From Phycisphaerales bacterium (GTDB lineage: Bacteria > Planctomycetota > Phycisphaerae > UBA1845 > PWPN01): a stretch of 64,000 nt of DNA. Numbering within the stretch: position 1 is the first letter of the stretch; each line of letters starts with the position of its first letter. Both the position numbers and the translations under genes were made by a program. The stretch is from positions 4-64,003 of the forward strand of contig JAAYCU010000283.1 in NCBI GenBank assembly GCA_012729595.1, in the 5' to 3' direction. Below the pieces are notes generated by a model that was given only the letters and a program-made list of their open reading frames with translations, made no database searches and was not told where the DNA came from. This document shows, one piece after another, positions 26,301 through 46,047 of the stretch.

Positions 26301-26569
26301 CCATGCCACGAATTGTGGGCGTGTTGTCGGCATTGGCGAGCATAGGTATCGCCGTGGTCGTCTTGCGGGCGGACCAGGCCAGACATGCTCGCCAGATCCA
26401 GAAGCTGCATATTGAGCAGCAACAAATGCACCAACGCATCTGGGAGCAGGAAATGGAGATGGCCCGTCTGCGCAGCCCGCGGATGATTCGTGAGCGTGCG
26501 GAGCGTCTGGGTCTGGCCGACGGAAAAAATCTTCCCAATCTGGCTCCGCCGCCGTCGGTCGACGATTAA
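26297..26569 (+). CDS. ftsL: Cell division protein FtsL-like (TM plus coiled coil)
   Basis: 90 aa. TM segment IVGVLSALASIGIAVVVL followed by a heptad-like QKLHIEQQQMHQRIWEQEMEMARL. Sits directly upstream of ftsI. Confidence 0.55.
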   Translation: MTMPRIVGVLSALASIGIAVVVLRADQARHARQIQKLHIEQQQMHQRIWEQEMEMARLRSPRMIRERAERLGLADGKNLPNLAPPPSVDD

Positions 26570-26579
26570 GGAGGGTTTC

Positions 26580-28513: not shown

Positions 28514-30100
28514 ATGACTGCGTCAATACGTCAAATTAAATGGAGCCGATTGGTCGCCTGCGCGGGGTTGTCCGCGTCAGGTGGCGAATCCGCGGACCCG
28601 TCGATCACCGCCATCGTGGACGATTCAAGGCAGGCCGGCCCGGGGGCGTGTTTTGTCGCGACACGCGGCACGCAGGTTGACGGTCATGTCTTTATCGAAC
28701 AAGCGTTGCAGGCCGGCGTGTCCGCGGTTATTTGTGAACGGCCGGTGGCGGTTCCGAAGGGGGTAGCCTGTCTGGTGTTGCCATGCACCCGGGGGGTGGC
28801 CGCTCGGCTGGCAGCGACTTTTCACGGGCTTGACCGGCTCCAGAATGAGGGACGTTTTCATCTGGTTGGCATTACCGGGACCAACGGCAAAAGCACGTTT
28901 TGTTATTTGTTGAAATCCATTTTGGAAGCGGCGCGTCATCGGACGGCTCTGCTCGGCACGATCGCGTATGATCTGGTTGGTCGCACCATAGAGGCGTCCA
29001 TGACCACTCCCCCGCCGGTGACTTTGATGGGTTATCTGGCGGAGGCCGCGAATGCCGGGGCGACGTACGCGGTAATGGAAGTCTCCAGCCACGCCTTGGA
29101 CCAGGGACGTTGCGACGGACTTCGTTTTGATGTCGGAGTATTCAGTAACCTGACCGGCGATCATCTGGACTATCACGTCGATATGGACAACTATCTTCGG
29201 GCCAAGAAGAAGTTATTCGACGGGTTGGACGAGCGGGCGACGGCCGCGATCAACATGGACGATCCCGCGGGGATACGGATGGTGGCTGATTGTCGGGCGC
29301 GTGTCCTGCGTTACGGTATTCTGGATGCGGATTGCCCAGATGATCGTGGACTGGATATTTACGCGGTATTGCGGGATATTCAGGCCGAGGGATCGTTGTT
29401 CGACCTGGTCCTGTCCGGGGTGGTCGAGCCGAATGGCTCCGGTGAGCGGCGTTGTCAGGTTCGCACCGCGATGGTTGGTCGTCATAACGTGCAGAACTGC
29501 CTGGCGGCGGCGGCCGCGGCGGTGGCTCTTGGAATCGACCTGGAAAGCATCGCCCGTGGCTTGGCCGCCATACGCGGAGTGCCCGGTCGTATGCAGCGGG
29601 TTCGTCCGCTAGCCGCCGACGGAACGGAAAACGATACCGGCTACACCGTGCTGGTGGATTACGCGCATACGGACGACGCGTTGCAAAATGTGCTGAGAGC
29701 CCTGCGTCCCCTGGCTCGCGGCCGTTTGCTGGTACTTTTCGGGTGCGGTGGTGATCGGGACCGGACCAAGCGGTCGCGGATGGCGAGAGTGGCCGCCGAA
29801 GGCGCTGATCTGGTAATGGTGACATCCGACAATCCTCGCAGCGAGGATCCGGCCAGGATCATCGAGGATATATTGACCGGTTTTACGGACTCGCAGCGGA
29901 CGAAAGTAAGGATTGAGGCGGATCGCCGCCGAGCGATCCATGAAGTAATCGGCCTGGCCGAGCCGGGGGATATCGTTCTGCTGGCGGGTAAGGGCCACGA
30001 AAATTATCAGATCATTGGGCGGGATAAACTGCCATTCGACGACGCCGCCGTGGCCGTCGAGGCGATGAGCAAAAGAAATGGTTGCGTCTGTTCATCATAG
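28514..30100 (+). CDS. murE: UDP-MurNAc-L-Ala-D-Glu:meso-DAP ligase
   Basis: GITGTNGKST and a DNPR motif (SDNPRSEDP), which points to DAP specificity. Mur ligase length and order. Confidence 0.92.
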   Translation: MTASIRQIKWSRLVACAGLSASGGESADPSITAIVDDSRQAGPGACFVATRGTQVDGHVFIEQALQAGVSAVICERPVAVPKGVACLVLPCTRGVAARLAATFHGLDRLQNEGRFHLVGITGTNGKSTFCYLLKSILEAARHRTALLGTIAYDLVGRTIEASMTTPPPVTLMGYLAEAANAGATYAVMEVSSHALDQGRCDGLRFDVGVFSNLTGDHLDYHVDMDNYLRAKKKLFDGLDERATAAINMDDPAGIRMVADCRARVLRYGILDADCPDDRGLDIYAVLRDIQAEGSLFDLVLSGVVEPNGSGERRCQVRTAMVGRHNVQNCLAAAAAAVALGIDLESIARGLAAIRGVPGRMQRVRPLAADGTENDTGYTVLVDYAHTDDALQNVLRALRPLARGRLLVLFGCGGDRDRTKRSRMARVAAEGADLVMVTSDNPRSEDPARIIEDILTGFTDSQRTKVRIEADRRRAIHEVIGLAEPGDIVLLAGKGHENYQIIGRDKLPFDDAAVAVEAMSKRNGCVCSS

Positions 30101-30170: not shown

Positions 30171-31625
30171 ATGAAACCCTTGACTCTGGAAGAAGTTGTG
30201 TCGGCCATGCAGGGAACCTGCGATCGGGCCGCGCCTTTGGGTAACGTGCTTCGCGTTTCCACGGATACTCGGGATACCGAGCCGGGCGATTTGTTCGTAG
30301 CCATTACCGGTGAACGGTTCGATGGGCATGATTTCGTGGACCGGGCGGCGGCCGGGGGAGCGATTGCCGCGGTGGTTCGTAACGATTATGCGCCGAAACC
30401 CGTGCGTGGACCGAGCGGCAAGCGGATCCCGCCGTCGCGGCCGGCGTTTTTGATTCGGGTGGATGATACGGTCAAGGCTCTCGGCCGCCTGGCCCGCTAT
30501 TACCGTCGGTCGGTTCTGGCCGGCAGCGTGACCGTCGTGGCCGTGACGGGCAGCAACGGCAAGACCACGACCAAGTCGATGATCGCCCATATCCTGGCCG
30601 GCCGCTGGACGGGCAAGGCTTCGCTGAAAAGTTTTAACAATGCCATAGGCGTACCCTTGACCTTGCTTTCGTCCGACGCGAAGGACAAGTTTGTTATTTG
30701 CGAGGTGGGCACTAATCATCTGGGAGAGATCGCCGAATTGGCCTATCTGGTCGAGCCGGAGGTCGCGGTGATTACCGGCGTATCGGAGGCCCATCTGGCC
30801 GGTTTGGGCAGTCTGGAAAACATCGCCGGCGAAAAGCTATCATTGTTGCGTTTCCTGCGCGGCGAGGGTTGCGGGATCGTCAATGCGGATCAGGAAGTGA
30901 TCCGGGATACGATCCATCGGGATCGGGAGTTGAGCCAACAGAAACTGGTTTATTTTGGATGCTGGCCGGAAGCCGATTTGCGTCTTACCGCCTTGCGTGT
31001 CGAACAGATGGATACGGGGGTTGCGGGGATGCCGGGCCTGGTTTTCGAGGTCAATGATCGTTTCGCATATCGATTGCCCGTTCCCGGGCGGCATAATGGG
31101 ATGAACGCGCTGGCCGCGGTGGCCGTGGCAAGGCGATTTGGGATGGATCACGAGGAGATTGCCGAACGGTTGGCCTCTTTTACCATGCCGGCCATGCGCC
31201 TTAACGGTGAGCGGATCGGTTCGTTGACCCTGATCAACGACGCCTATAACGCAAACCCGGCGTCTCTGGCTGCCGCCGTGGAGGTTTTAGCCGACATTCC
31301 AGCGCGGCGGAGAGTCTTGATCGTTGGGGACATGCGTGAGCTGGGCGACGATACCCAGCGGTTACATCGCGAGGCCGCGATCCGGATTGCCCGGAGCGAA
31401 CCCGATGTGGTTATCGCGGTCGGCGAGAACGCGGACTTGATCGGTCAGACCATACGGGACGAGGCCGATAAGATTGAGACACACGTATACTCGACCACTA
31501 CTCTGGCTCGAAAGCGGTTGATCTCGCATCTGAGCAAGGACGATACCGTGTTGATAAAGGGCTCGCGGGCTTTAGCGTTGGAGCAACTGGCCGAGAAGAT
31601 CAAGGAGTGGGCCGTAGAGCGGTAG
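30171..31625 (+). CDS. murF: UDP-MurNAc-tripeptide:D-Ala-D-Ala ligase
   Basis: VTGSNGKTTTK and NDAYNANP. Positioned after murE. Confidence 0.9.
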   Translation: MKPLTLEEVVSAMQGTCDRAAPLGNVLRVSTDTRDTEPGDLFVAITGERFDGHDFVDRAAAGGAIAAVVRNDYAPKPVRGPSGKRIPPSRPAFLIRVDDTVKALGRLARYYRRSVLAGSVTVVAVTGSNGKTTTKSMIAHILAGRWTGKASLKSFNNAIGVPLTLLSSDAKDKFVICEVGTNHLGEIAELAYLVEPEVAVITGVSEAHLAGLGSLENIAGEKLSLLRFLRGEGCGIVNADQEVIRDTIHRDRELSQQKLVYFGCWPEADLRLTALRVEQMDTGVAGMPGLVFEVNDRFAYRLPVPGRHNGMNALAAVAVARRFGMDHEEIAERLASFTMPAMRLNGERIGSLTLINDAYNANPASLAAAVEVLADIPARRRVLIVGDMRELGDDTQRLHREAAIRIARSEPDVVIAVGENADLIGQTIRDEADKIETHVYSTTTLARKRLISHLSKDDTVLIKGSRALALEQLAEKIKEWAVER

Positions 31626-31802: not shown

Positions 31803-32945
31803 GTGTTTTATCATATATGTGACTATCTGCTGGACTACCCCGCGGGCCCCTATGCTTATAAGGATGCGCTGTTTCGCGGGACGTGCGCGGTCCTACTGGG
31901 CTTCGTGGTGGTCTGGCTGCTGAGTCCGCGGGTGATCCGCGAGCTGATGCGGCGCAAGATCGGTGACCGTCCGGAATTCGATCATGCCGATCTGAACGAG
32001 ATCGCCAAGGATAAGAAGAACACGCCGACTATGGGGGGGATCCTGATCGTGATGGGGATCCTGATCTGCGTGTTGCTCCTGGGTGATTTACGGAATTACT
32101 ACATACGTATGGGGCTGTTCTGCATGGGCTGGTTGGCCTGTCTGGGCGGCATCGATGATTACCTTAAGTTGACCGGGTATACCCGTAGCGGGACGCGGGA
32201 CGGCCTGAAAATGTACGAGAAACTGCTGTTCCAGGTCGGGCTGGGCGTGCTGCTGGGGTTTTTTATCTACCGCCACGGCCAGCATAACGCGGCCATGGCC
32301 GTCGTCAGCGGAGAATCGGTCGAGGCGTTCCGTATTCTCAGCGTGCCTTTTTATAAATACGGCATACAACTGGGCATCCCCGCCTTTCTGATCGTGACGG
32401 TGCTGGTGCTTACCGGTACTTCCAACGCGGTGAATCTGACCGACGGGATGGACGGGCTGGCCAGCGGTTGCATGGCCTTGTGCAGTTTCGTATTCATGGT
32501 TTTCGTCTATCTGGGCGGCGATGCCGAGCGGGCTCACAGTCTCCTGATTCCGTATATCCCTCTGACCGGGGAGCTGGCCGTCCTGTGTGGGGCCATGCTC
32601 GGGGCCTGCCTTGGATTCTTGTGGTATAACGCCTATCCGGCCCAGGTTTTCATGGGCGACACCGGATCGCTGCCTCTGGGCGGGTTGATCGGCTATGTGG
32701 CCATTGTTACCCGAAACGAGCTGATGCTTTTTATCGTGGGCGGAGTATTCGTAATCGAGGCCATCTCCGTTCTGCTCCAGGTCGGGTACTTCAAGGCGAC
32801 CGGCGGTAAACGCATATTCCGTGTTGCCCCGATCCATCACCACTTTCATCTTGGCGGCTGGACGGAGACGCAGACGGTGATCCGCTTCTGGCTGATGGCG
32901 GCCATCTTTGCCGGGATCGCCTTGGCTACCGTGAAACTTCGCTGA
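31803..32945 (+). CDS. mraY: Phospho-MurNAc-pentapeptide translocase
   Basis: Polytopic. NAVNLTDGMDGLA, FMGDTGSL and PIHHHFHLGGW. Confidence 0.93.
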   Translation: MFYHICDYLLDYPAGPYAYKDALFRGTCAVLLGFVVVWLLSPRVIRELMRRKIGDRPEFDHADLNEIAKDKKNTPTMGGILIVMGILICVLLLGDLRNYYIRMGLFCMGWLACLGGIDDYLKLTGYTRSGTRDGLKMYEKLLFQVGLGVLLGFFIYRHGQHNAAMAVVSGESVEAFRILSVPFYKYGIQLGIPAFLIVTVLVLTGTSNAVNLTDGMDGLASGCMALCSFVFMVFVYLGGDAERAHSLLIPYIPLTGELAVLCGAMLGACLGFLWYNAYPAQVFMGDTGSLPLGGLIGYVAIVTRNELMLFIVGGVFVIEAISVLLQVGYFKATGGKRIFRVAPIHHHFHLGGWTETQTVIRFWLMAAIFAGIALATVKLR

Positions 32946-33034
32946 GGGGGTGGACGGATGGGCGGCGTTGTGTCGATACACATGCAGGACACGCGAGAAG
33001 GAGGGGAAACCCACGGCGGCACGTTGGATGCGGC

Positions 33035-34291
33035 GTGCCGGCCGCAGAGAGTGTTGCTATGAGCGAGGCCCTGCCTATATCAATGCCTGACATGACCGCC
33101 GATACTGCTGAGCCGGATCTGAACGAAGGGGCCGGGCTATTTACCTCGCGGGCCATAATTGCTATTGCCGTTGGTCTGATGGGGGTCGGGGCTATCATGA
33201 CCTGCTCGGCCGGCGCCACTCTAGGGCGGCCGTTGCTGGGCTGGCGCTTCTGGGAATTTCAAGCCGGGCGACAAATTCTGTTTATTCTAGCCGGTATGAT
33301 TGCCATGCTAGTTGTGGCTCGTATCCCTTACCGAATATGGTCGGCGGGGGGAGGGGCTTTGGCCTTGGTCGCCTTGGTGCTGGCTATCGGTTCCCTTGTG
33401 CTGGTCTATGTTCCCGGTCTGGGCGTGGAGGTTAACCAGGCTCGACGATGGGTTCGGGTCAGTCCGGACAGTGTTGGGTTACGTTTTCAACCTTCGGAGT
33501 TGATTAAGATCATGCTGCCGATTTTTCTGGCGGTGTGGCTGACCCTAAGAGTAGATATTTCGCGGTTCTGGACCGGCCTGATACCGATAGTGGGCGTTAT
33601 TGGTGTCTGCGTGGCCGGTATCGGCTTGGAGGATTTTGGGACCGCGGCTCTCCTGGCCGGGGTGGCCGGTACCATGCTCCTGGTCGGCGGAGCCCGACTG
33701 TGGCATCTGTTCTTAATGGTTCTGCCGGCCCTGCCGGCATTTGGATACCTGCTGATCAGCCGACAGCACCGTATGCGCCGACTGTTGACCTATCTGAATA
33801 TCTGGGAGGATCCGCAGGGCGAGGGTTATCAGGTGATCCAGTCGCTCTGCACGATCGCCCACGGTGGATGGTGGGGGCGGGGCTTGGGTAACGGGATGAT
33901 TAAGACCTATCTGCCCGAGGCCCGCACCGATTTTATCTTTGCGGTGATCTGCGAGGAGTTGGGGATCGCGGGCGCGGCGGTGGTTATCGCCTTATTGATT
34001 GCCCTGCTTTGGCAGGGTTTGAAAACGGTTCGAATATGCGGCGATCCAACGGGCCGTCTGCTGGCCTTCGGGATCACCATTACGCTTGGGTTACAGGCGG
34101 CTATGAACATTGCCGTGGTCACGGTTTCCGTGCCAACCAAGGGTATTTCGCTTCCTCTGGTATCCGCCGGGGGGTCCGGGGCGATTTTTCTTGGTATGCT
34201 CGTTGGTCTGTTGGCCAATATCGCGAGGAAGAGCGACAGGGGGGTACCGCTTACGGGCGATTCGAAAACATTGAATAACAGGTGCGGATAG
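33035..34291 (+). CDS. ftsW: SEDS glycosyltransferase FtsW
   Basis: Polytopic. FQPSELIKI and TDFIFAVICEELG. The start is the GTG at 33035 or the ATG at 33059. Confidence 0.88.
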   Translation: MPAAESVAMSEALPISMPDMTADTAEPDLNEGAGLFTSRAIIAIAVGLMGVGAIMTCSAGATLGRPLLGWRFWEFQAGRQILFILAGMIAMLVVARIPYRIWSAGGGALALVALVLAIGSLVLVYVPGLGVEVNQARRWVRVSPDSVGLRFQPSELIKIMLPIFLAVWLTLRVDISRFWTGLIPIVGVIGVCVAGIGLEDFGTAALLAGVAGTMLLVGGARLWHLFLMVLPALPAFGYLLISRQHRMRRLLTYLNIWEDPQGEGYQVIQSLCTIAHGGWWGRGLGNGMIKTYLPEARTDFIFAVICEELGIAGAAVVIALLIALLWQGLKTVRICGDPTGRLLAFGITITLGLQAAMNIAVVTVSVPTKGISLPLVSAGGSGAIFLGMLVGLLANIARKSDRGVPLTGDSKTLNNRCG

Positions 34292-34445
34292 AAGTGGGAG
34301 ACCAGGAGAAGGGAAGAGGGGGCAATGAAACAGGGTTATCCCATATCTCCGATTCTTCTCCTCCCCGCGTCTGTCCCTCATGCATATTTGCGTGTCGTTT
34401 ATTAACATGGTTCTCGCCGGTGCAACAGGAACACAGCAGGTCATG

Positions 34446-35609
34446 ACCCAGAATCCTTGGATCGTTTTCGCCGGCGGGGGGACAGGTGGGCATCTGTTTC
34501 CCGCCTTGGGGGTGGTGGAGGCCTTGCGCGGCCGTAGCCTGCCCGTCGACGTGACTTTCTTCTGTACTACCCGACCGATCGACGGTGAAGTCCTAGGCCG
34601 GGCCGGCCTGGAGGCGGTTCCCCAGTCGGTTCTTCCGTTCACCAGCAAACCTTGGCGCTGGCCAGCCTTTTTGCGGCAGTGGCGGCGATCGGTTACGTCC
34701 TGTCATCGGGCGTTTACTGCCCGGCGTCCGGCGGTGGTGGTCGGGGCGGGCGGTTATGCCTCCGGGCCGCCGGTACATGCGGCCATGAAACTGGGGATCC
34801 CGACATACCTGCTCAATCCGGACGCCCTGCCCGGCCGGGCTAATCGCTGGCTGGCCCGGCGAAAGGATTTGAGCGGCATTTTTGCCCAATGGCCGGTGAC
34901 TAAGAAGCATTTTTCATCGTCGGCGCGAGTGATAGTGGCCGGCTGCCCGGTTCGACCGGCATTTCGGGCTCTGCCAGACGCGCACCTGGACCGGCATTTC
35001 GGCCTGGTTCCAGAACGTAAGACGCTGCTGATTACGGGTGCCTCTCAAGGAGCCCGGACCATCAACGAGGCCTTGATCGATCTGGCCGACCAGATCGCCC
35101 GGACGGGTTGGCAGGTTTTACACCTGAGCGGTACGGCCGACCGGGACCGGGTTGAGCAAGCCTATGCCCGGGCCGCCGAAAATTGCCGTCCGACGCATTT
35201 TCCCTATCGCGTTCTGGCCTTTTCCGATCTGATGGCCGAGGCCATGGTCGGGGCGGACCTGATCGTTTCGCGGGCGGGTGCTTCCAGTCTGGCGGAAATC
35301 CAGGTTGTGGGCAAGCCCTCCGTGTTGCTCCCATACCCGTTTCATCGGGATAAGCACCAGTGGCATAACGCGGCGGTCTTGTCCGAGGCTGGGGCGGCCG
35401 TGCTGATAGATGATACTCGCGACGGTCGCCGGAACGCCGAGCTGCTTGGCCCTATTCTGGCCGACTTGATGGGCGACGATAATAAGCGTGATGGCATGTC
35501 CGCTGCCGTCCGGTCCTTGGCCTATCCTGAGTCCGCCGAACGTATCGCCGAATATTTATTGGCCGAGGCGAAAAAACCGCTTTCCGCTCCCGTGAGATCG
35601 CCATCGTGA
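34446..35609 (+). CDS. murG: UDP-GlcNAc:lipid I GlcNAc transferase
   Basis: FAGGGTGGHLFPALGV and the SRAGASSLAEI region. The ORF-track start at 34380 is probably an extension. Confidence 0.9.
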   Translation, partial: TQNPWIVFAGGGTGGHLFPALGVVEALRGRSLPVDVTFFCTTRPIDGEVLGRAGLEAVPQSVLPFTSKPWRWPAFLRQWRRSVTSCHRAFTARRPAVVVGAGGYASGPPVHAAMKLGIPTYLLNPDALPGRANRWLARRKDLSGIFAQWPVTKKHFSSSARVIVAGCPVRPAFRALPDAHLDRHFGLVPERKTLLITGASQGARTINEALIDLADQIARTGWQVLHLSGTADRDRVEQAYARAAENCRPTHFPYRVLAFSDLMAEAMVGADLIVSRAGASSLAEIQVVGKPSVLLPYPFHRDKHQWHNAAVLSEAGAAVLIDDTRDGRRNAELLGPILADLMGDDNKRDGMSAAVRSLAYPESAERIAEYLLAEAKKPLSAPVRSPS

Positions 35610-35913
35610 GCGGTTCATTTGCTCAATTCTGAATCTTTCTGAATGGTGGCCCATAAAGCTCTCGATACCCCTCAAGGAATTGCAAATCGACTCCCGATAC
35701 TCTTATATGGATTGGCTTTAGCGCAGGTGCGCCGCGTCTTTCCGAGTACTATTTATGCGGCGCGATCTGGAGTTTTTCTTTCATTGCTCAGGGTCTTTGA
35801 TTAAAATAACCCGATACTGGTGCGGATCGCTACCGGTAACGTCTGGTAGGTCGGGCTTGTAGCCTACGGACGCCCCGGGCGTTCGCGGATTTTTTTCCAG
35901 GAAGGAATTTTTC

Positions 35914-37410
35914 ATGTCCAGAGGCGCACGGATGATCGGCCTGACGGGCAGCGAAATAAAGGTGGCACCGCCGCTCTATCCGGCGGTTCCTTCTCTGCGG
36001 GACTTCACGAGGAATTGGCTACCCGTTGGGCAACGCGTGCACCTTATCGGTGTAGGCGGTTGCGGTATGCGCGGGGCGGCGGAAATGCTGCTGCGCCGCG
36101 GGGCTATTGTAAGCGGGTCTGATCGGGCGGCTTCCGATGCCACCGCGATACTTGCCAGCCATGGCGCGAAGGTTTACACCACGCAAGCAGCAGACCATCT
36201 GCCCGAATCATGCCATCTGGTGGTCTATTCAGCCGCCATCAAGGAAACAAACCCCGAGCTGGCGGAAGCCCGGCGTCGCGGATATCCGGTGATGAAGTAT
36301 TCTCAATTGCTCGGCCTGCTCATGGCTCAGCAGACGGGCCTGGCCATCGCCGGGACGCACGGCAAGAGTACCACGACGGCCATGGTCGCCTATGTACTCC
36401 GCCGGGCGGGGTGCGATCCGTCCTATGTGATTGGGGCGGAGGTCGAGCAACTCGGCGGCGGGTCCGGTTACGGCGAGGGCGAGCACTTCGTCGTCGAGGC
36501 CTGCGAGTACGATCGTTCGTTCGTAAATCTACGGCCGCGGTTGGCCGCTATTCTAAACATCGAGGAAGACCATCTCGATTACTATGCCGATCTCGACGCG
36601 ATAGAAGAGGCTTTCAGGGATTTTATCGCGTTGCTACCCGCTGACGGGCTACTGGTAGTCAACGGCGAGGATCGCAATGTTCAGCGGGTGCTGGCCGGGT
36701 CGGTTGCCCCGGTGGAGACTTTTGGTTTCGAGGGTAACTTTAATTGGCGAGCCAACATCCTGGACAGCAATAACGGTTGTATCCGTTTCGAGGTTTGGCG
36801 AGGCGACCGGGTACTGACCGAGGTGGCCATGTCTATTCCGGGTCGGCATAACGCGTCCAACGCCCTGGCGGCGATGGCCTTGTGCTTCCGGGCCGGGGTG
36901 GAGCCGGAGACCATTGCCAAGGCCTTGGGCGAGTTCGGCGGGGCCGGACGACGCCTGACCCTTCGCGGTAGTGTCGCCGGGGTGACCGTAGTGGACGATT
37001 ATGCCCATCACCCCACCGAGATTCAGGTTACGCTTCGGGCGGCGCGGGACTTCTATCGCCCGCGCAAGATGTTCGTTGTCTTTCAGCCGCACCAGCATTC
37101 GCGGACTCGTTGCCTGTTGAATGATTTCGCTCGGAGTTTCGGCTCCGCCGACTTGGTGATCGTGCCGGATATTTTCTTTGTCCGGGACAGTGAATCCGAG
37201 CGTGATTTGATCGATTCCATCGATCTGGTCGAGCGGATTCATGCCCAGGGAGGCGAGGCCCGCTACGAAAAAAGTTTCGAGCGAATCGTGATGCAATTAG
37301 GCCGGGAGGTTCGCGAAGGCGACCTGGTGATCACAATGGGGGCCGGCGACGTATGGCGGATGGCCGACCAATTGTTGGATTGCCTCAAACAAACACGCTC
37401 GGGGAAATAG
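35914..37410 (+). CDS. murC: UDP-MurNAc:L-alanine ligase
   Basis: HLIGVGGCGMRGAAE, GTHGKSTTTAM and DDYAHHPTEI. The RBS is AGGAAGGA. Confidence 0.92.
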   Translation: MSRGARMIGLTGSEIKVAPPLYPAVPSLRDFTRNWLPVGQRVHLIGVGGCGMRGAAEMLLRRGAIVSGSDRAASDATAILASHGAKVYTTQAADHLPESCHLVVYSAAIKETNPELAEARRRGYPVMKYSQLLGLLMAQQTGLAIAGTHGKSTTTAMVAYVLRRAGCDPSYVIGAEVEQLGGGSGYGEGEHFVVEACEYDRSFVNLRPRLAAILNIEEDHLDYYADLDAIEEAFRDFIALLPADGLLVVNGEDRNVQRVLAGSVAPVETFGFEGNFNWRANILDSNNGCIRFEVWRGDRVLTEVAMSIPGRHNASNALAAMALCFRAGVEPETIAKALGEFGGAGRRLTLRGSVAGVTVVDDYAHHPTEIQVTLRAARDFYRPRKMFVVFQPHQHSRTRCLLNDFARSFGSADLVIVPDIFFVRDSESERDLIDSIDLVERIHAQGGEARYEKSFERIVMQLGREVREGDLVITMGAGDVWRMADQLLDCLKQTRSGK

Positions 37411-37596
37411 GCGCGTTATCGAGGCCCGCTTGGAACCTCGGACCGCGCGATAAGTGGGTGGGGACGGAGTGCATCGGCGTTGAATGGGACATGGGCAAGC
37501 GGACGGGATATACTGCCTTCCGGCTTGTGACGGAACGCGGAGAACGTATTTGATCGGGTGGTTTTGCTGGTCCCTGGTCGGCGGTCGAAAGTGGGA

Positions 37597-38553
37597 ATGC
37601 TGATGATGCCTTTTCTGTCCAATATGGCCGATGTGGTCCACGCGAACGAGCCGCTGTCGCCGCACACGTATTTCGGTTTGGGGGGTGCGGCCCGCTGGTT
37701 TGCCCGACCGCAATCCATGGAGCAATTGCGGGAAATCCTCGGTCAGTGCCGCGACGAGAATATTCGCAGTTATGTACTGGGGCTGGGAGCCAATTTGCTG
37801 GTAGACGATGACGGGGTGGACGGCGTAGTGGTTCGACTGAACAGCCCGGCCTTTCGGCGGATGGAGTGGGAGCTGGAGGCGAATCCGCCACGGGTCACGG
37901 CGGCGGGTGGGGTAGATCTTAATCGCCTCATACTCGACGCGGTGCGCCAGGGGCTGGGCGGTCTGGAATGCATGGCCGGTATCCCCGGGACACTGGGCGG
38001 TGCAATCCGCATGAATGCCGGCGGGCGTTTCGGCCAGATCGCTGACGTGGTTCGCGAAATTGTCGTGGTCGATATCGACGGCCGGGAGCGTACGATGTCC
38101 GCCGCCGAGGTGGGCTTTAGGTATCGCGGCAGTAACTTGAACAATCTGCTGGTTTGCCAGGCGACGCTTGAGTTGCGTCCAGAAGATCCAGCGGAGCTGC
38201 GCCGTCGTTATATGGAAATCTGGGATTATAAGAAACGCACGCAACCGCTGGCTTATCCGAGTGCCGGTTGCGTGTTTCGCAATCCACCCGGCCACAGCGC
38301 CGGTCAGTTGATCGATCGTGCCGGGATGAAGGGGCGGACTATTGGTGGAGCCATGGTCGCCCTCGAGCATGCCAACTTCATCGTCGCCAAGGAAGGCGCC
38401 ACCGCCCGAGACGTACTGGCCCTGATCGCTCTGGTCCGCCGAGAGGTGGCCGAACGCTTCGGCGTTGAGTTGGAGCTTGAGCTGGAAATCTGGTCCTCGC
38501 GGCACGCGCGAAGTGAGGAACTGGTGGCCGGAGCGTCCGGCGGGGGTTTCTGA
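37597..38553 (+). CDS. murB: UDP-N-acetylenolpyruvoylglucosamine reductase
   Basis: PLSPHTYFGLGGAARWF and GSNLLV-like GANLLVDD, plus the AGCVFRNP region. The start is uncertain (37558, 37597 or 37624). Confidence 0.9.
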   Translation: MLMMPFLSNMADVVHANEPLSPHTYFGLGGAARWFARPQSMEQLREILGQCRDENIRSYVLGLGANLLVDDDGVDGVVVRLNSPAFRRMEWELEANPPRVTAAGGVDLNRLILDAVRQGLGGLECMAGIPGTLGGAIRMNAGGRFGQIADVVREIVVVDIDGRERTMSAAEVGFRYRGSNLNNLLVCQATLELRPEDPAELRRRYMEIWDYKKRTQPLAYPSAGCVFRNPPGHSAGQLIDRAGMKGRTIGGAMVALEHANFIVAKEGATARDVLALIALVRREVAERFGVELELELEIWSSRHARSEELVAGASGGGF

Positions 38554-38580: not shown

Positions 38581-39540
38581 ATGACGCGTTTAGTAGACAA
38601 ACCGGCAGTTCTGGTGCCCGCACTGAAGACGGTCAAGCGTAAGCTGGCGATCACCGTCTTGATGGGCGGTCCTGGTAGCGAGCGGGAAGTCAGCTTGAAT
38701 AGTGGCCGACGGGTCACCGAAGCCCTGCGAGCGCTGGGGCATGACGTTTACAGCGCGGACATCCAGCCCGATGATCTATCCGCCCTCGAACGCCCGATGG
38801 ACATGGTATTTCTGGCCCTGCACGGGGAGTTCGGCGAAGATGGGCAGGTGCAACAGGTTCTCGAACAGCGCGGTATAAAGTACAGCGGATCGGGTCCGCG
38901 GGCATCGGCTTTGGCTATGGATAAGGTGGCCGCCAAGTGCCGTTTTATCGAGGCCCATGTTCCTACCCCGCGATTCGACGTGGTCAGCCCGCAGCGAGTG
39001 GACAAGGTACTGGAGCATTGGACCTGTCCGGTGGTGGTCAAGCCGTCCGCTCAGGGTAGTAGTGTCGATTGTCTTATCGTACGTCAGCCGGAAGAGTTGC
39101 GTGGCGTCCTGGAAGACATGACCCGGCGTTACGATCGTTGTTTATTGGAGGAGTTTATCCAGGGGCCGGAATTGACCGTGGGCATTCTCGGCGAGGCGGC
39201 CCTGCCTCCGATCCAGATCCAGACCCGCCGGGATTTCTACAACTACGAGGCCAAGTATCTTGACAACGATACGGAGTATCGGTTCGATATTGATTTGCCG
39301 GACGCCGTGCTAGCGCGCATCAGGGATATGAGCGTACAGGCCCATCTGGCCTTGGGATGCCGTGATTTCTCGCGGGTTGACTGGATGGTCGATTCTCGTA
39401 CTCTGGAACCCTACGTTCTGGAAATCAATACGATTCCCGGCCTGACCGATCATTCGTTGCTGCCGAAGGCGGCCCGGCAGGCGGGATTGAGTTTCGAGAT
39501 GCTCTGTCAACGGATTGTGGAATTAACCTGCCAGAGATAA
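38581..39540 (+). CDS. ddl: D-alanine:D-alanine ligase
   Basis: VLMGGPGSEREVSLNSG, HGEFGEDGQVQ, VVKPSAQGSSV and EINTIPG. Confidence 0.92.
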   Translation: MTRLVDKPAVLVPALKTVKRKLAITVLMGGPGSEREVSLNSGRRVTEALRALGHDVYSADIQPDDLSALERPMDMVFLALHGEFGEDGQVQQVLEQRGIKYSGSGPRASALAMDKVAAKCRFIEAHVPTPRFDVVSPQRVDKVLEHWTCPVVVKPSAQGSSVDCLIVRQPEELRGVLEDMTRRYDRCLLEEFIQGPELTVGILGEAALPPIQIQTRRDFYNYEAKYLDNDTEYRFDIDLPDAVLARIRDMSVQAHLALGCRDFSRVDWMVDSRTLEPYVLEINTIPGLTDHSLLPKAARQAGLSFEMLCQRIVELTCQR

Positions 39541-39595: not shown

Positions 39596-40543
39596 GTGAG
39601 TCGAAGACGGCGCAAGAAAAAAGCGATTCCCGATCAGGGAAGCGGTAGTCCGGACGAGAGTGGTTGCGGACTAGTAGATTGGAGAACGACGGCCTCGGCC
39701 CTGGGCGTGTTGGTTTTGGTAACCGGCGCGGTCATGGGTTTAGAGCGTTTGCGCCAATATGTGTTGACCCGTCCGGATTTCGATCCGCCGGTGAAGCTGG
39801 ATCTGGTCTGCCAACCCGGGAATCAGTGGATCGATGATGAGGGTTGGCGGCCGCGGATTCTGTCGGCCATCGAAATGCCCAAATCGGCCCAATGGCGCGA
39901 TGCCGATCTGCTCGCGGAGGTGGCGAGGCGCATGGAGGCCACTGGTTGGGTAGCCCAGGTTCGTCAGGTAACCAAGGAAATGAATGGAGTGGTGCGTGTA
40001 GATTGCGATTATCGCCGTCCGATAGCGATGATCTATACTCGCCAAGGGTTGAGTAACAGTAGCTGGAGCGAAGGTTTTATCCCGATCGATGCCGATGGGG
40101 TCAGGCTGCCGGAGGAATACGGTAGCGTAGGGTCCGAGGCTGGTTGGATTCGTATATTTGGGGTGCGTACCGCGCCTCCGCCGGTAGGCCGATCCTATGA
40201 TCGCCAGACCGATGCGGAAGCCGCCGTGCGTCTGGCCCGGCTTATATTCCAGCAGCCTTTTGCCGTGCAGATCAGTGCCATCGACATGGCCAATTATCGT
40301 GGTCGCCGGGACCGAAACCAGGAGCATATCGTCCTGCGCACCAGGCGCGGCGGTGAGATCATCTGGGGTTCGGCCATCGGCGAGGAATGCGAGGAGCTCG
40401 ACCCGGCCGCCAAGATTCGGAACATCGCCCTGTTTCTCGATCGTGGCGATCCTCAAGCCCAGGTAATAGTCCATCTCGACCGCAATGGGTGGCGGGAGAT
40501 CCAGCGGCCGGTGGTTCAGACCGCCGACAGCCGTTCCTCTTGA
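39596..40543 (+). CDS. ftsQ: FtsQ-like bitopic division protein (POTRA-like region)
   Basis: Basic N-terminus, a single TM (LGVLVLVTGAVMGL), and a periplasmic region with POTRA-like alternation. Positioned after ddl. The assignment rests largely on architecture and synteny. Confidence 0.6.
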   Translation: MSRRRRKKKAIPDQGSGSPDESGCGLVDWRTTASALGVLVLVTGAVMGLERLRQYVLTRPDFDPPVKLDLVCQPGNQWIDDEGWRPRILSAIEMPKSAQWRDADLLAEVARRMEATGWVAQVRQVTKEMNGVVRVDCDYRRPIAMIYTRQGLSNSSWSEGFIPIDADGVRLPEEYGSVGSEAGWIRIFGVRTAPPPVGRSYDRQTDAEAAVRLARLIFQQPFAVQISAIDMANYRGRRDRNQEHIVLRTRRGGEIIWGSAIGEECEELDPAAKIRNIALFLDRGDPQAQVIVHLDRNGWREIQRPVVQTADSRSS

Positions 40544-40596
40544 TGGCTTTCGGCGCGGCGGGTTCGCTCGCAGCGCAGAGGTGCGCCGTGGTCGGC

Positions 40597-41418
40597 ATGC
40601 AAGAACTAATCACAGCTCTTTCAGATGTCCTGGCTTTAATGCGTCATCATTTGCCCTGGGATCGGCTGCCCGACCCGAGCGTGCTGGCGGCGATCTTCGC
40701 GCTGGCCGGGGTTGTGTTGTGTTTCTGGGGCGCGCGCCTGCTCCGGGCGTTATTCGTCCTGGGTTTTCTGGCCGGGGGTATTTCCTTAGGGATTCGAGTG
40801 GCGCGGACTATTCCGGTGGATGATCTGGTCGGTCTGGTCGTCGGAGGGGCCATCGCGGCGATCATAGGTCATCTGCTGTATCGCTGGTGGGTAGGGTTGT
40901 TGACCGGGCTCTGTGCGGTAGTCCTGGTACTGCTCATTGGCGGGCCGAGGGTGCTTCCCCAGGTAATCAAGGACTTTCAGGACCAGCATTACGGCAGCGA
41001 GGGCGCAGTTTACGTGCTTGCCGATCCATCGTCCGCGGGTGAAGGCCCGGCCATGGAAGAGTCTGAGTATTATTGGATCCAAGTAAAGGATTATTTCTGG
41101 AACCAGCAGCGGCCGTTCACGACGCGTATCGGCCTGGCTTTAGCCCTGGCCGGGGTGCTGGGTGTTATTGTCGGCGTGATGCTGACCCGGACGGCCGCCA
41201 TCGTTGGTACCTCCCTGTTCGGAGTGTTGGCCGTCGGTTTGGCGGGCGGTTCGTTGATATCCATGCAGTGGCCGGCTTTGTGGACGCAGATGCAAGCCCA
41301 GCCGGGCTGGCTTCTGGGGGGGCTGGGGCTATTGCTGATTATTTCTTTGTCCATGCAGGCCCGGGGTGGTCGGCCTGTCCAGATGGCCGCGATGGGACCG
41401 GCTCATCCGAACCAATAA
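40597..41418 (+). CDS. Polytopic membrane protein (DUF4203/TMEM198-like pattern), paralogue 1
   Basis: About six TM segments. LAGVVLCFWGARLLRALFVLGFLAGG. An acidic soluble loop (ADPSSAGEGPAMEESEYYW). The ATG at 40597 comes after the ftsQ stop, and the ORF-track start at 40387 overlaps ftsQ. Confidence 0.6.
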   Translation: MQELITALSDVLALMRHHLPWDRLPDPSVLAAIFALAGVVLCFWGARLLRALFVLGFLAGGISLGIRVARTIPVDDLVGLVVGGAIAAIIGHLLYRWWVGLLTGLCAVVLVLLIGGPRVLPQVIKDFQDQHYGSEGAVYVLADPSSAGEGPAMEESEYYWIQVKDYFWNQQRPFTTRIGLALALAGVLGVIVGVMLTRTAAIVGTSLFGVLAVGLAGGSLISMQWPALWTQMQAQPGWLLGGLGLLLIISLSMQARGGRPVQMAAMGPAHPNQ

Positions 41419-41451
41419 CCGGTCGTTCTAACGGTTAAGCGAACGGACGGT

Positions 41452-42084
41452 TTGCGGATATCAATTATTATGATCAATTGGTCGGCCTTATTGATGGATT
41501 TGTCGCGACAGGAATTCATCCTGGGAATGTTTTTTCTGTCGGCCGGCCTGGTATTTTTGCTCTGGGGGTTGCGGGTTTATAGTATCTTGGTGGTGGTCAG
41601 CCTGGTAGCCATCAATACTATCGTATGTATTTATTTGCCGTTGTTAATGCACTATCGCATATTGCTGGCAGGGTTAATCGGTCTGATTCTTTTATTCTTT
41701 GGATGGCGCTTAACCAAGATCTATGTCGGCCTGTTGGTCTCAGCCTGGGCCGCTGTCATCCCCTTTACGGTACTCGATACATACGGCGTTCGCCCGGAGA
41801 TCAGCCTGACCATCGCTCTGTTTTTCGTCGCGGCCGTCATTTCCATGGTATTCATTCTGTTCGAGCAGGCTATTGCCTTGGTCACCAGTTTCGAGGGGGC
41901 CCTGCTTTGTCTGGCGGGGATGGTCAATCTTGCCGGGCAAAGCCCTCGCGTCTGGGATTTTCTGCAACCTATGCTTTTGGGAAATGCATTCTTCACGCCA
42001 TTTCTGGTGGTGGCCATCACCTTCTCCGGTTTTTATTTCCAGATGGCCGAATACACCCGCCAGAAAACCGGCATGAGCGGCTGA
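41452..42084 (+). CDS. Polytopic membrane protein (DUF4203-like pattern), paralogue 2
   Basis: About six TM segments. SAGLVFLLWGLRVYSILVVVSLVA parallels the motif in the preceding gene. Visibly AT-richer than its neighbours. Confidence 0.6.
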   Translation: MRISIIMINWSALLMDLSRQEFILGMFFLSAGLVFLLWGLRVYSILVVVSLVAINTIVCIYLPLLMHYRILLAGLIGLILLFFGWRLTKIYVGLLVSAWAAVIPFTVLDTYGVRPEISLTIALFFVAAVISMVFILFEQAIALVTSFEGALLCLAGMVNLAGQSPRVWDFLQPMLLGNAFFTPFLVVAITFSGFYFQMAEYTRQKTGMSG

Positions 42085-42373
42085 CGGGCCGAACGTGCCA
42101 AACGGACCTGGCGCCGACGCATATCCACACTAAATCAGTCAAGCGGTGACGCCCCTTGTTCACTTACTCTCCGGACTGTCGGGCGGGCGAGGCAGGGGGA
42201 TCGTAACGCTCCGATTCATGGCCGGGATGGGTAGAGTGAGGGTGTCGTGGGTTCGCGTCCCGGCGTGCAGGTCGTGGGTAAATACGCCGGCCATGGCGTG
42301 CAACGGAGCGGCCGACCTTCGTCGGCGAGAACGGGAACCGCACCCTCCGACGGATTGAGCGTTAGCACGCTGC

Positions 42374-44107
42374 TCATGATTCGGGAAACACCATATCGAG
42401 AATCTGTAATTCAACGGTCGTCCGGCCGTTGTAGGTATTGAGCGTCGGGACATAAGCCAGGCGGCAGCGCCGATGGTCCATGAGCGGTTGATAGCCGTCC
42501 TTGCCCTTGAAGGCGACGGCCCGCAACCGGTTCTGCCCGTCGGTGACGTTGAAGGACATGTGCTCGCCCAGTCGACCCATCAGTCGCGGCTCACCTTCCA
42601 GGGCCAACAGACCGCTGGCAAAACACGGTTTGGGATTGCTCGCGCCGAACGGTCCCAGTTGCTCGATCTGGCGGATCAGCGGTTCACTGAGCAGGCCGAG
42701 GGGAATCTCGGCATCGAGCCGCAGAGTAGGTTGAAGATCTTTACCGGTCAGGGTCTGGTTGGCCTGAGCGATAAAGGCCTGGCGAAAGGCTTCGACCTGC
42801 TCCGCCCGAATCCGCAGACCGGCGGCCATCGCATGCCCGCCATAGGTCAGCAGATGTTCGGAACAGGCGGCCAGGGCTTTATGCAGCTCGAAATGGCGGA
42901 CGCTGCGCCCAGAGCCCTGCCCCTCGCCGTTGTTGAGGGCGATCATGATCGTCGGGCGGCAGTAGCGGTCCACGATTCGCGAGGCGACGATGCCGATAAC
43001 GCCGGCATGCCAGTCGGCGTCGGCCAGCACGATGCCCCGGGCCGCGTCGGAAGCCAGGTTTCCCGAGTCGATCCGCTCGCACGCTTCCTTGAAGATCTGT
43101 TTTTCGATCTTCTGGCGGCGGCGGTTCTGGTCCTCGAGGTAAAGGGCGATTTCGCGGGCCCGGTTTTCGTCAGCGCTGGTGAACAGCTCGACGGCCAGTT
43201 CGGCGTGGCCCATGCGCCCGGCGGCGTTCAGCCGGGGAGCGAGCCAGAATCCGGCGTGCTCGCTGTTCAGTCGGCAGTCGGTCAGCCGGGCCGATTCGAG
43301 CAACGCCCGCAGGCCCACAAGTTTGGACTCGGATAAACCGTGCAGGCCGAACCGGGCGAGGATGCGGTTCTCGCCGATCAGGGGTGACACATCGGCGATG
43401 GTGCCCAGGGCGGCCAGGCCGGTGGCGGAGATTAGAAATTCCCGAAACTCCGGGGTCACTCGCTCGGAGTTGGAAAGTTGCTGAGCGACGGCCCAGGCGA
43501 GCTTGAAAGCGACGCCGGCCCCGCAAAGGGCGGGGTTGGGGTAATCTTCCAGAGCGGGGTGAACGACGGCCTCGGCGCAGGGTAACTCGTCGCCGGGGGC
43601 GTGGTGATCGGTAACAATCAAGGTCAGGCCAAGCTCGCGGGCCAACCGGGCTTCCGCGCACGCCGTCGCTCCGCAATCGACGGTAACGACCGTATCGACG
43701 CCGCTCGCCCGCAGTTGCCGCAGGGCGTCGGCGTTCAGGCCGTAACCTTCCTCCAGCCGATGAGGGATATAATAGGACACCTGGGCCTTGGCTAATTTGA
43801 GCAGTTGCCAGAGGATGGCGGTCGCGGTGATGCCGTCAACGTCGTAGTCGCCGTAGATGGCGATGGTTTTCTTCTGGCGGACCTTCTCGGCGAGCAGGGC
43901 GGCGGCCTCGGCGATACCGGCAAGCTGCTCGGGCGGATGGAGCCTGATTAATTCGGGGTTGAGGAAGTCCCGGGCGGCGGAAGTATCGGTGACTCCGCGA
44001 TTATGCAGAATCTGGGCGATCAGGGGATGGACGTTGAGTCGGCGGGCGAACTCCGCGCATCCTTGCATCAGCGGGGCGAGCATCCATTGCCGGGCCATCG
44101 TAGCCAA
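42374..44107 (-). CDS. recJ: Single-stranded-DNA-specific exonuclease RecJ
   Basis: DHH family motifs GDYDVDGITA, VTDHH and GGHAMAAG. Length 577 aa. Confidence 0.92.
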   Translation of the reverse strand: MATMARQWMLAPLMQGCAEFARRLNVHPLIAQILHNRGVTDTSAARDFLNPELIRLHPPEQLAGIAEAAALLAEKVRQKKTIAIYGDYDVDGITATAILWQLLKLAKAQVSYYIPHRLEEGYGLNADALRQLRASGVDTVVTVDCGATACAEARLARELGLTLIVTDHHAPGDELPCAEAVVHPALEDYPNPALCGAGVAFKLAWAVAQQLSNSERVTPEFREFLISATGLAALGTIADVSPLIGENRILARFGLHGLSESKLVGLRALLESARLTDCRLNSEHAGFWLAPRLNAAGRMGHAELAVELFTSADENRAREIALYLEDQNRRRQKIEKQIFKEACERIDSGNLASDAARGIVLADADWHAGVIGIVASRIVDRYCRPTIMIALNNGEGQGSGRSVRHFELHKALAACSEHLLTYGGHAMAAGLRIRAEQVEAFRQAFIAQANQTLTGKDLQPTLRLDAEIPLGLLSEPLIRQIEQLGPFGASNPKPCFASGLLALEGEPRLMGRLGEHMSFNVTDGQNRLRAVAFKGKDGYQPLMDHRRCRLAYVPTLNTYNGRTTVELQILDMVFPES

Positions 44108-44340: not shown

Positions 44341-46047
44341 TTGCCGGGTTTCATGACAGATCAGGGGGAAAACGCCAATAGGTCGGCGGGCTTCGGGAGT
44401 TATTTAGTGAAGATGACACGCATATCGGTGGTTTTGAGCTTTGCTTTCGTGGTCATGTTGTTGACCGTGGGGCCGGTGATGGGGGCCTGGCCTCAAGAGC
44501 AGGGTTTGCCTTATTTTGTGCATGTTTCGGCAGGGCTGTGTTTATTCTGGACCCTGGTTAGACTTTCCATCGAACGTGGTTGTCCGGCTTTCAGCGCCGG
44601 CCAAACGGGTCGGGATTTGGTGGCCGTTCTGCGACTTGCGGTTTTGCTGACCGGTTGGTTGGCAATCATCGGTATGACTCTGGCCGCTTCGATCGAAATA
44701 TTTTTCCGTATCGCCGCATTTCGATACCCGATAAGCTGGCGACTGGAAATCTGGCCCTCGGGCCTGGTGGATATCGCTTTGCTGGTGGGGGCCTTGCTGC
44801 TTCGCTGGTGGAGCAGTGGTCGGCCTGCCCTCTTGACCAGTATTTACGGTTTACTGGTATTTGGCGGGTTGTGGTGTGCTCTGCTGATTCCGGCATTACG
44901 CCGCCCGGTAGCGGTGGAGGGTGTGGTTGGGCTGGCCGAGGAAACCGCATGGGCGAGCGTGTTTATTCTCGGGGCCGGCCTGGTGACGGCGTTGTTCTGC
45001 TGGGCGGCGGGCTGGGCCCATCATCGGCGGCGGGTTCGGGCCTGGCCCAATGAATTATGGCGACTGGCGGAGGCGGCGACGGAGTGGCCCGGCTTCCGGT
45101 TCAGCGTGGGTACCGTCGCCATGCTGGTGTTGCTCGTGGGTTGTGTATTCGTGAGTCGGCCTCTGACCGGTGTCGGCGCGTTTCTTACCGGCGGGTCGCT
45201 ACTGGTACTGGCTCATCGACGCTGGCAGGAAAGTCTGGCCGACGCCGGTTGTGCGCTTATGACGCTTGGAGTAGTGGCGGGTTGCATGTTTGCTCAGCCG
45301 CTATCGAATACTCCGGAGGCGATGTTTGCGGAGATATTTAACCGGGCTATCCTGGGATTGGCGATAATGACGGCTTTCTGGCACTGGCTAGGCGGGGTCT
45401 GGGAACAGCAGTTGGATTCCGGCCAGGCTTGGACGACGGCCGGTCGTTTGATTCGGGTGTGTCGGCGGGTGGGGTTTCTGGTCGGGGCGATAGGGGTGCT
45501 GGTTGGGGCATGTCTGGCGTTCTGGCCTTTGCGACAATACGTCACCGATCTTGACGATGCGAAGCGGCGATGGGTCTGGGGACTTTTCGCCTATGGGTTG
45601 TTGATTCTGTCGCTCTTATTCTCTGCTCGGCGGACCGGTAAGCCGACGCTGGGCTGGCTGTTGCTGCTGGCCGTCGGTTGTATGGTTGGGTTCATACTGG
45701 TCCGCTCTCCGCATGTTCCGCTTACCGAGTGGGTTGTCGGCCGCTGGCCGTTGGTGCTGGCCGGTGCGGCATTGGTTTTATTGGTGGCGGCGTTCGGTGT
45801 ACAGCGGCGGCCGAGCTGGGAGGCGCTGTTTGAGGCTTGTTATTTGACCGGGTTGGTTTTGGCTCCGCTGGTGGCGGCCCTGGGTGTCATGTTGCATATG
45901 CCGCAATGGTTTCCTTACTGGCTTCCCTCCATGACGTTCGCTCTGCTGGCCGGTCTCTACCTGCTGGCGGCGGTGTTATTTAAGCCGCGGGTTATCGCGG
46001 TCATGTCCATCCTCTGCGTGGCTGTCGGTTGGTGGCATCGCTGGTAA
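44341..46047 (+). CDS. Hypothetical large polytopic membrane protein
   Basis: 568 aa with at least 12 hydrophobic segments. Rich in W, L and G. No family recognised. Confidence 0.6.
   Translation: MPGFMTDQGENANRSAGFGSYLVKMTRISVVLSFAFVVMLLTVGPVMGAWPQEQGLPYFVHVSAGLCLFWTLVRLSIERGCPAFSAGQTGRDLVAVLRLAVLLTGWLAIIGMTLAASIEIFFRIAAFRYPISWRLEIWPSGLVDIALLVGALLLRWWSSGRPALLTSIYGLLVFGGLWCALLIPALRRPVAVEGVVGLAEETAWASVFILGAGLVTALFCWAAGWAHHRRRVRAWPNELWRLAEAATEWPGFRFSVGTVAMLVLLVGCVFVSRPLTGVGAFLTGGSLLVLAHRRWQESLADAGCALMTLGVVAGCMFAQPLSNTPEAMFAEIFNRAILGLAIMTAFWHWLGGVWEQQLDSGQAWTTAGRLIRVCRRVGFLVGAIGVLVGACLAFWPLRQYVTDLDDAKRRWVWGLFAYGLLILSLLFSARRTGKPTLGWLLLLAVGCMVGFILVRSPHVPLTEWVVGRWPLVLAGAALVLLVAAFGVQRRPSWEALFEACYLTGLVLAPLVAALGVMLHMPQWFPYWLPSMTFALLAGLYLLAAVLFKPRVIAVMSILCVAVGWWHRW

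Follow-up and report, generated by a model that had tools for sequence, protein, structure and literature searches.

The distal end of the dcw cluster

We analysed the distal end of a division and cell wall (dcw) gene cluster of a Phycisphaerales metagenome-assembled genome (MAG; GenBank assembly GCA_012729595.1, contig JAAYCU010000283.1); the window is the whole stretch of DNA that was analysed, 64 kb in length. The co-directional mraZ-rsmH-ftsI-mur-ftsW-ddl-ftsQ run that marks a dcw cluster is present (Pfam, NCBIfam), and it is followed by two genes for polytopic membrane proteins, here called TM1 and TM2. None of the three genes after ddl (FtsQ-like, TM1 and TM2) has a significant Pfam or NCBIfam match. 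As described below, the order ddl-ftsQ-TM1-TM2 recurs in distant relatives, and TM1 and TM2 are candidate accessories of the envelope machinery encoded beside them. The distal genes are as follows.

38581-39540, plus strand: ddl (D-alanine--D-alanine ligase), NCBIfam NF002378, E 7e-100, above the curated cutoff
39596-40543, plus strand: FtsQ-like gene, 315 aa, by predicted fold, topology and position
40597-41418, plus strand: TM1, 273 aa, identical to NCBI GXY44_12520
41470-42084, plus strand: TM2, 204 aa, by alignment of homologues, in an open reading frame (ORF) from TTG 41452
42085-42373: TM2-recJ intergenic gap of 289 nt in the sequence, no Rfam match
42374-44107, minus strand: recJ (DHH, DHHA1 and RecJ_OB, by Pfam), convergent, end of the cluster

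The initial annotation had described two co-directional genes between ftsQ and a convergent recJ at which the cluster ends. The recJ boundary is as it had proposed, and both genes exist. TM1 was placed correctly, with alternative starts at GTG 40588, at the equivalent of which the homologues start, and at ATG 40543, which overlaps the ftsQ stop codon. The start of TM2, however, is probably not TTG 41452, where its ORF opens, but ATG 41470, as indicated by the alignment of homologues. A 100%-identical fragment was also found in a bioreactor metagenome.

The gaps in the window are short: 55 nt between ddl and ftsQ, 53 nt or an overlap between ftsQ and TM1, and 33-51 nt between TM1 and TM2. No terminator-like site lies in these gaps, as all such matches in the window fall within coding sequence; together with the lack of any Rfam match, this rules out recognisable structured RNAs or terminators at the gene junctions. 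Given the short gaps and the lack of a terminator-like site, it is plausible that TM1 and TM2 are co-expressed with ddl and ftsQ.

A divergent FtsQ by predicted fold

The gene product upstream of TM1 is identical to NCBI GXY44_12515. Sequence profiles are silent on it: the ORF at 39596-40543 matches no Pfam or NCBIfam family at E<=1, including POTRA_1 and FtsQ_DivIB_C, the consensus sequence of its family matches none at E<=10, none of its 39 homologous clusters carries a Pfam domain, and a profile of the 39 homologues found no FtsQ among the PDB sequences. An AlphaFold2 (AF2) model was built from the 39 homologues, with a predicted local distance difference test score (pLDDT) of 86.6 and a predicted TM-score (pTM) of 0.76. 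In a Foldseek search of the PDB with this model, ranks 1-8 were all FtsQ (E 1e-6 to 9e-5, probability 1.0). These structures, among them 2vh2, 5z2w, 8hhf_Q, 6h9o and 2vh1, are from E. coli or Yersinia and include the FtsQLB complex. The ranks that follow are POTRA domains of Omp85/BamA. The structural alignments to FtsQ have modest TM-scores of 0.39-0.48 and identities of 12-16%.

The topology is also that of FtsQ. Hydropathy gives a basic N-terminus (RRRRKKK), a single transmembrane segment at about residues 30-53 and a large extracytoplasmic body; the AF2 model has a helix at residues 29-58, and the periplasmic part is predicted to consist of a POTRA-like domain plus a beta domain. Furthermore, the gene lies directly after ddl in the window, as it does in all related loci that contain ddl. 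Because of the fold prediction, topology and position, we accept 39596-40543 as a putative highly divergent, fast-evolving FtsQ, so that the earlier ftsQ call is correct at the level of the predicted fold. FtsB, the usual partner of FtsQ, is reported to be absent from Planctomycetota (PMC12283558).

Conservation of the gene order

For TM1, an exhaustive HMMER search of 1.84 billion representatives (clusters at 50% identity) yielded a family of 340 representatives with E<=1e-3, of which 170 have E<=1e-10 and 47 have E<=1e-30. Almost all of them have a length of 265-295 aa, with alignments that span the whole protein. A word-indexed search and a broad profile had returned only 6 and 13 proteins, as if TM1 were a tiny orphan family; since the exhaustive search found 340, the low counts are an artefact of sensitivity.

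The locus of each relative was annotated with hidden Markov models (HMMs) for the FtsQ-like protein, TM1, TM2 and the enzymes of the window. Where the relatives carry a taxonomic label, they are MAGs of Phycisphaerae or Planctomycetota, and the genome and metagenome scans, for which narrower alignments served as queries, are biased toward closer relatives. After duplicates were collapsed, there were 22 distinct lineages with TM1, and upstream sequence was present in 21. The FtsQ-like gene is directly upstream of TM1 in 19 of these 21, TM2 is directly downstream in 19 of the 22, and ddl precedes the FtsQ-like gene wherever the contig extends far enough. The order also holds in loci found from the TM2 side, and those found from the FtsQ side (L013 and L014) have TM1-TM2 as well; L013 is CP070790.1, a complete 4.28-Mb Planctomycetota MAG.

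Five distant representatives taken across the range of E-values (P0110, P0120, P0140, P0180 and P0195) all have TM1 after ddl and the FtsQ-like gene, with core enzymes that are 45-66% identical to those of the window. At that depth the identity to the window is 63-66% for MraY, 54-57% for Ddl, 47-52% for MurC, 30-37% for FtsQ and 25-27% for TM1. Thus, the ddl-ftsQ-TM1-TM2 order is deeply conserved, and the conservation of synteny after ftsQ that the initial annotation had put forward for testing largely holds, down to about 50% identity in MurC.

Other neighbours of the pair vary. In four lineages, including two in which the pair is not linked to ftsQ (L024 and L025), TM2 is followed by a gene for AP_endonuc_2, a xylose-isomerase-like TIM barrel:

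L024, 10435-11352: AP_endonuc_2 after TM2, co-directional
L025, 11417-12334: AP_endonuc_2 after TM2, co-directional
L027, 11820-12617: AP_endonuc_2 after TM2, co-directional
L028, 11893-12699: AP_endonuc_2 after TM2, co-directional

In the distant lineage L016, TM1 is followed by a DUF1611 gene and a SpoIID-domain gene (8904-11308) in place of TM2, so this neighbourhood is still cell-wall related. In L013, all that is left of ftsW is two fragments, of 58 and 97 aa (4242-4721), and cysS and ruvCAB lie upstream; the dcw cluster of this genome is therefore broken upstream of murG, with ddl-ftsQ-TM1-TM2 intact.

Topology and sequence conservation of TM1 and TM2

Hydropathy gives seven hydrophobic segments each in TM1 and TM2. 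The AF2 model of TM1, from 67 sequences (pLDDT 90.3), is all-helical, and the first two hydrophobic segments form one continuous helix, residues 27-71. The pass count of TM1 is thus 6 or 7, and the previous estimate of about six segments in each protein becomes six to seven. TM1 has an acidic, weakly conserved insertion of about 60 aa, at residues ~117-175, that splits the domain and is not found in TM2. By the positive-inside rule, the R96-x-W98 turn, R198 and the basic C-terminal tail are predicted to be cytoplasmic, and the acidic insertion periplasmic, in both the 6-pass and the 7-pass models; the GA-L-R motif would be cytoplasmic in the 7-pass model only.

Among 67 diverse homologues of TM1, the cytoplasmic turns are the best conserved, at 3.1-3.2 bits, and the periplasmic loops and the insertion the least, at 1.3-1.6 bits. 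The helices contain invariant or near-invariant glycines (G38, G45, G61, G65, G189, G193 and G209). The functional surface of TM1 is probably made up of the near-invariant Arg/Trp turns, namely GA-L-R, R96-x-W98, R198 and Q254/R259. A Foldseek search of the PDB gave no fold match for TM1, the best E being 1.4, and no relative of TM1 or TM2 with a solved structure was found, either by this fold search or by a sequence-profile search.

TM2 had been described as visibly richer in AT than its surroundings. It is, with a GC content of 0.507 compared with about 0.59 for the window, but there is no signal of a foreign origin. GC at third codon positions is 0.659, inside the 0.63-0.75 of the neighbouring genes, and the deficit, which relatives show as well, lies in the first and second codon positions. 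Because third positions are normal and the trend is shared by relatives, the low GC of TM2 reflects an amino-acid composition rich in F, I, L and Y.

TM1 and TM2 are remote paralogues

Direct comparison of TM1 and TM2 by BLASTP is weak (E 0.03). Alignment of the two families with hhalign gives a probability of 84.8% and E 6.6e-6 over 82 columns, the TM1 HMM matches TM2 proteins at 2.6e-9 and 1.9e-9, and a 15-member TM2 HMM aligns with TM1 proteins in two colinear blocks, one on either side of the TM1 insertion (E 3.7e-9 to 4e-6). Sequence comparison thus shows a similarity beyond chance, as expected of real remote paralogues, and the paralogy first suggested by a shared N-terminal motif holds at the level of the families. 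The motif is real as well, with a deep core of G-x6-G-x-R (G38/G45/R47 in TM1 and G26/G33/R35 in TM2), but the Trp that had been included in it is conserved only within a close clade.

The initial annotation had also pointed to DUF4203/TMEM198. PF13886 (DUF4203, TM7S3/TMEM198-like), a profile of about 199 positions with a gathering score of 29.2 bits, is the commonest weak match and the sole family that recurs. The N-terminal half of the window TM1 aligns with profile positions 1-92 (10.4 bits, E 0.53), the C-terminal half of the TM1 consensus with positions 106-198 (20.7 bits, E 3.5e-4), both sub-threshold, and there are scattered weaker matches in both families. The best match is TM2 of the relative L029, at 24.8 bits and E 2e-5 over positions 4-198 of 199, also below 29.2. 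The window TM2 has no match to PF13886, no member of either family reaches the gathering score, and most have no match to it at all. The lead thus has colinear matches in both families in its favour, but all of them are sub-threshold. TM1 and TM2 are probably remote homologues of DUF4203 and not members of it, and would form a previously undescribed family, probably distantly related to that domain. We know of no bacterial function for DUF4203. Within a limited collection of papers, no mention of DUF4203 was found, nor, in the dcw and planctomycete literature, any description of the genes after planctomycete ftsQ.

The upstream cluster and neighbouring genes

The remainder of the cluster, identified by Pfam and NCBIfam (for the LysM protein, together with its translation), is as follows.

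22995-23471, plus strand: mraZ
24118-25053, plus strand: rsmH
25158-26300, plus strand: bitopic LysM protein, in the ftsL slot
26490-28331, plus strand: ftsI
28514-30100, plus strand: murE
30171-31625, plus strand: murF
31803-32945, plus strand: mraY
33035-34291, plus strand: ftsW
34380-35609, plus strand: murG
35914-37410, plus strand: murC
37558-38553, plus strand: murB

The canonical dcw order from mraZ through ddl and ftsQ was claimed at the outset and is borne out by these assignments, with two deviations. The first is murD, which is not found between mraY and ftsW (31803-34291), and no fourth Mur ligase occurs in the whole window. The mraY-ftsW stretch is likewise without murD in all the relatives' loci that cover it (L014, L016, L017, L020 and L027-L029). 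The second is ftsL, no recognisable copy of which is present in the window's dcw cluster. The LysM protein at 25158-26300 has 380 aa; besides an N-terminal transmembrane segment, it has a long linker of low complexity and two peptidoglycan-binding LysM domains. Lying between rsmH and ftsI, it could stand in for FtsL or FtsN as a lineage-specific protein that binds septal peptidoglycan. The cluster also contains long non-coding gaps, of about 650 nt between mraZ and rsmH (23472-24117) and about 300 nt between murG and murC (35610-35913); no Rfam match was found anywhere in the window, hence none in these gaps.

Downstream, recJ is kept in many relatives. In several of them a convergent gene for a PMT_2 glycosyltransferase, which is polyprenyl-phosphate-sugar-dependent, lies between TM2 and recJ, where the window has only the 289-nt gap:

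L001, 2637-4445: PMT_2, convergent
L010, 1985-3826: PMT_2, convergent
L013, 12583-14304: PMT_2, convergent
L014, 12584-14158: PMT_2, convergent

Beyond recJ, 44341-46047 (plus strand) encodes a polytopic membrane protein of 568 aa for which neither Pfam nor NCBIfam gives a match at E<=1 and which also adjoins recJ in a close relative (L017, 15286-16938). At 56544-57563 (minus strand), a single ORF joins an N-terminal HEPN domain to a Formyl_trans_N domain, an unusual fusion.

Absence of FtsZ and FtsA

Neither ftsZ nor ftsA is present in the window or in the loci of the relatives, and no reading frame of the window contains the tubulin signature GGGTG[ST]G. A tblastn search of the window with E. 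coli FtsZ gave one match, at 60662-60991 (E 0.008). This is a chance match within the IleRS gene, whose product, a class I tRNA synthetase, has Anticodon_1 and DUF5915 domains, and not a hidden FtsZ. The genes after ftsQ encode all-helical membrane proteins, neither a tubulin-type GTPase nor an actin-fold ATPase. The absence noted in the initial annotation is therefore real, but it is known for all Planctomycetota (PMC12283558, PMC10632474, PMC6952346) and is not a feature of this locus. In Phycisphaerae and Planctomycetia, ftsZ, ftsA and ftsB have been lost, and ftsQ, ftsW and ftsI kept (PMC12283558, PMC10632474). What drives binary fission in the FtsZ-less Phycisphaerae has been posed as an open question (PMC6952346). 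To say that TM1 and TM2 occupy the ftsA/ftsZ slot was an overstatement, as they may simply be what remains beside ftsQ.

Discussion

We suggest that ftsQ-TM1-TM2 is a conserved module, in which TM1 and TM2 serve as a membrane accessory of the peptidoglycan and division machinery, and we give this proposal an even chance of being correct. As is often the case for tandem paralogues with glycine-rich helices, TM1 and TM2 may form a hetero-oligomeric complex in the membrane. Together with FtsQ and the FtsW-FtsI synthase, this complex would act as an accessory or scaffold, embedded in the membrane, for envelope growth or septation in a lineage without FtsZ, FtsA and FtsB. The variable acidic insertion of TM1 would face the periplasm, and the functional face would lie not in this insertion but in the conserved cytoplasmic turns with Arg and Trp or in the glycine-rich helices. 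A more specific form of the proposal makes a heteromeric TM1-TM2 a core, lineage-specific component of the divisome, namely the FtsZ-, FtsA- and FtsB-less divisome of binary-fission Planctomycetota, where it would bind FtsQ and license or position septal synthesis by FtsW-FtsI. This we consider distinctly unlikely.

The two genes had been proposed at the outset as candidate lineage-specific division factors. The genes, their paralogy and their synteny are real, but the role in division is one that we infer from synteny, by guilt by association. Several observations weigh against such a role. Neither fold nor profile searches found a relative of TM1 whose function is known. The models differ on the number of passes, six or seven. 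The poor conservation of the periplasmic insertion argues against a specific periplasmic contact with FtsQ. Linkage to ftsQ is not universal: in two Phycisphaerae MAGs (L024 and L025) TM1 and TM2 are together but away from ddl and ftsQ, between a PfkB kinase gene and the AP_endonuc_2 TIM-barrel gene. Three lineages (L016, L022 and L030) have TM1 without a detectable adjacent TM2, so that an obligate heterodimer is not required everywhere. The intergenic gaps of distant lineages, at 120-290 nt, are long enough to hold separate promoters. In P. limnophila (class Planctomycetia), the sole planctomycete tested genetically, ftsQ and most dcw genes are dispensable (PMC10632474).

A serious alternative, which we hold to be rather less probable than a role with the division machinery, is that TM1 and TM2 are general membrane proteins of the DUF4203 type with a housekeeping function, which owe their place at the end of the dcw operon to descent and are transcribed with it. 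The tails of dcw clusters elsewhere do carry non-division genes, such as lpxC after ftsZ in E. coli. The unlinked pairs and the long gaps just described are what this would predict, as are the downstream partners, which differ between relatives (PMT_2, AP_endonuc_2 or DUF1611/SpoIID), and the lack of similarity of TM1 and TM2 to any known divisome protein. However, adjacency to ftsQ has been kept in 19 of 21 lineages, to about 50% identity of the core enzymes, which would be unusual without functional coupling. Furthermore, TM1, TM2 and FtsQ diverge at similar, fast rates.

It is possible, but improbable, that the TM1-TM2 pair is instead a transporter or flippase that moves an envelope precursor or carrier lipid, such as a polyprenyl-phosphate-linked intermediate or a recycled product, over the inner membrane to feed the peptidoglycan enzymes whose genes lie upstream. 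Such an activity would suit a glycine-rich, polytopic bundle of helices from a tandem pair of paralogues, linked to mur, ddl and ftsW genes and with arginines at the membrane interface as its best-conserved residues. There is, however, no sequence or fold similarity to transporter families (the best Foldseek E is again that of 1.4), and the proteins are small, with no obvious substrate cavity open to examination here. The PMT_2 glycosyltransferase that adjoins the pair in several relatives uses polyprenyl-phosphate sugars, but its gene is convergent, outside the operon and absent from the window. A replacement of FtsZ/FtsA by TM1 and TM2, as the primary membrane organiser that positions and activates the FtsQ-FtsW-FtsI synthase in Phycisphaerae, is the strongest form of the initial proposal and a similarly slight possibility: the genes come directly after ftsQ in deep synteny, are restricted, as sampled, to Planctomycetota-type dcw clusters without ftsA/ftsZ, and belong to bacteria whose fission driver is an open question (PMC6952346), but they encode small integral membrane proteins with no polymerising or nucleoside triphosphatase domain, and in some lineages the pair lies away from the dcw cluster or TM1 has no TM2 beside it.

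The literature names planctomycete division without FtsZ as an open problem, above all in Phycisphaerae, with their binary fission (PMC6952346, PMC12283558). In published surveys, known dcw genes are recorded as present or absent; to these we add three previously unannotated genes from the distal end of the cluster, which are conserved together. One appears to be an FtsQ that has diverged too far for profile databases to recognise, and the TM1/TM2 pair, with 340 representatives for TM1, provides concrete candidates for cell-envelope or division factors. This is useful as a list of candidates, and is not yet evidence of a mechanism. If TM1-TM2 is a core part of the divisome, it would be a first molecular handle on the division of these bacteria; if the pair is unrelated to division, its locus would still give a first genomic context for a bacterial DUF4203/TMEM198-like branch.

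Comparison with known systems

YlmG/YggT are small membrane proteins, their role unclear, encoded downstream of ftsZ in the dcw clusters of Gram-positive bacteria and cyanobacteria. TM1 and TM2 are like them in being integral membrane proteins conserved at the distal end of the dcw cluster, but have no PF02325 match and differ in size and number of helices. DUF4203/TM7S3_TM198 (PF13886) includes eukaryotic TMEM198 and TM7SF3 and uncharacterised bacterial proteins. Its members are also helical, with about 200 aa and about seven hydrophobic segments, the number that hydropathy gives for TM1 and TM2; TM1 is unlike them in the insertion that splits its domain. The window protein at 39596-40543 resembles FtsQ/DivIB (POTRA_1, PF08478, plus FtsQ_DivIB_C, PF03799; 2VH1, 2VH2, 6H9O and 8HHF), in that it is a bitopic protein whose cytoplasmic N-terminus is basic, its gene comes immediately after ddl, and its predicted periplasmic fold matches. 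It differs in that no sequence profile of Pfam, NCBIfam or the PDB matches it, even at E<=1-10. Finally, the window shares the upstream gene order and the co-directional arrangement of the dcw clusters of E. coli and Verrucomicrobium spinosum, whose tail is ftsQ-ftsA-ftsZ(-lpxC) (PMC12283558). Unlike those clusters, that of the window has no ftsA, ftsZ or murD, has a LysM protein in the ftsL slot, and has two polytopic membrane proteins after ftsQ.

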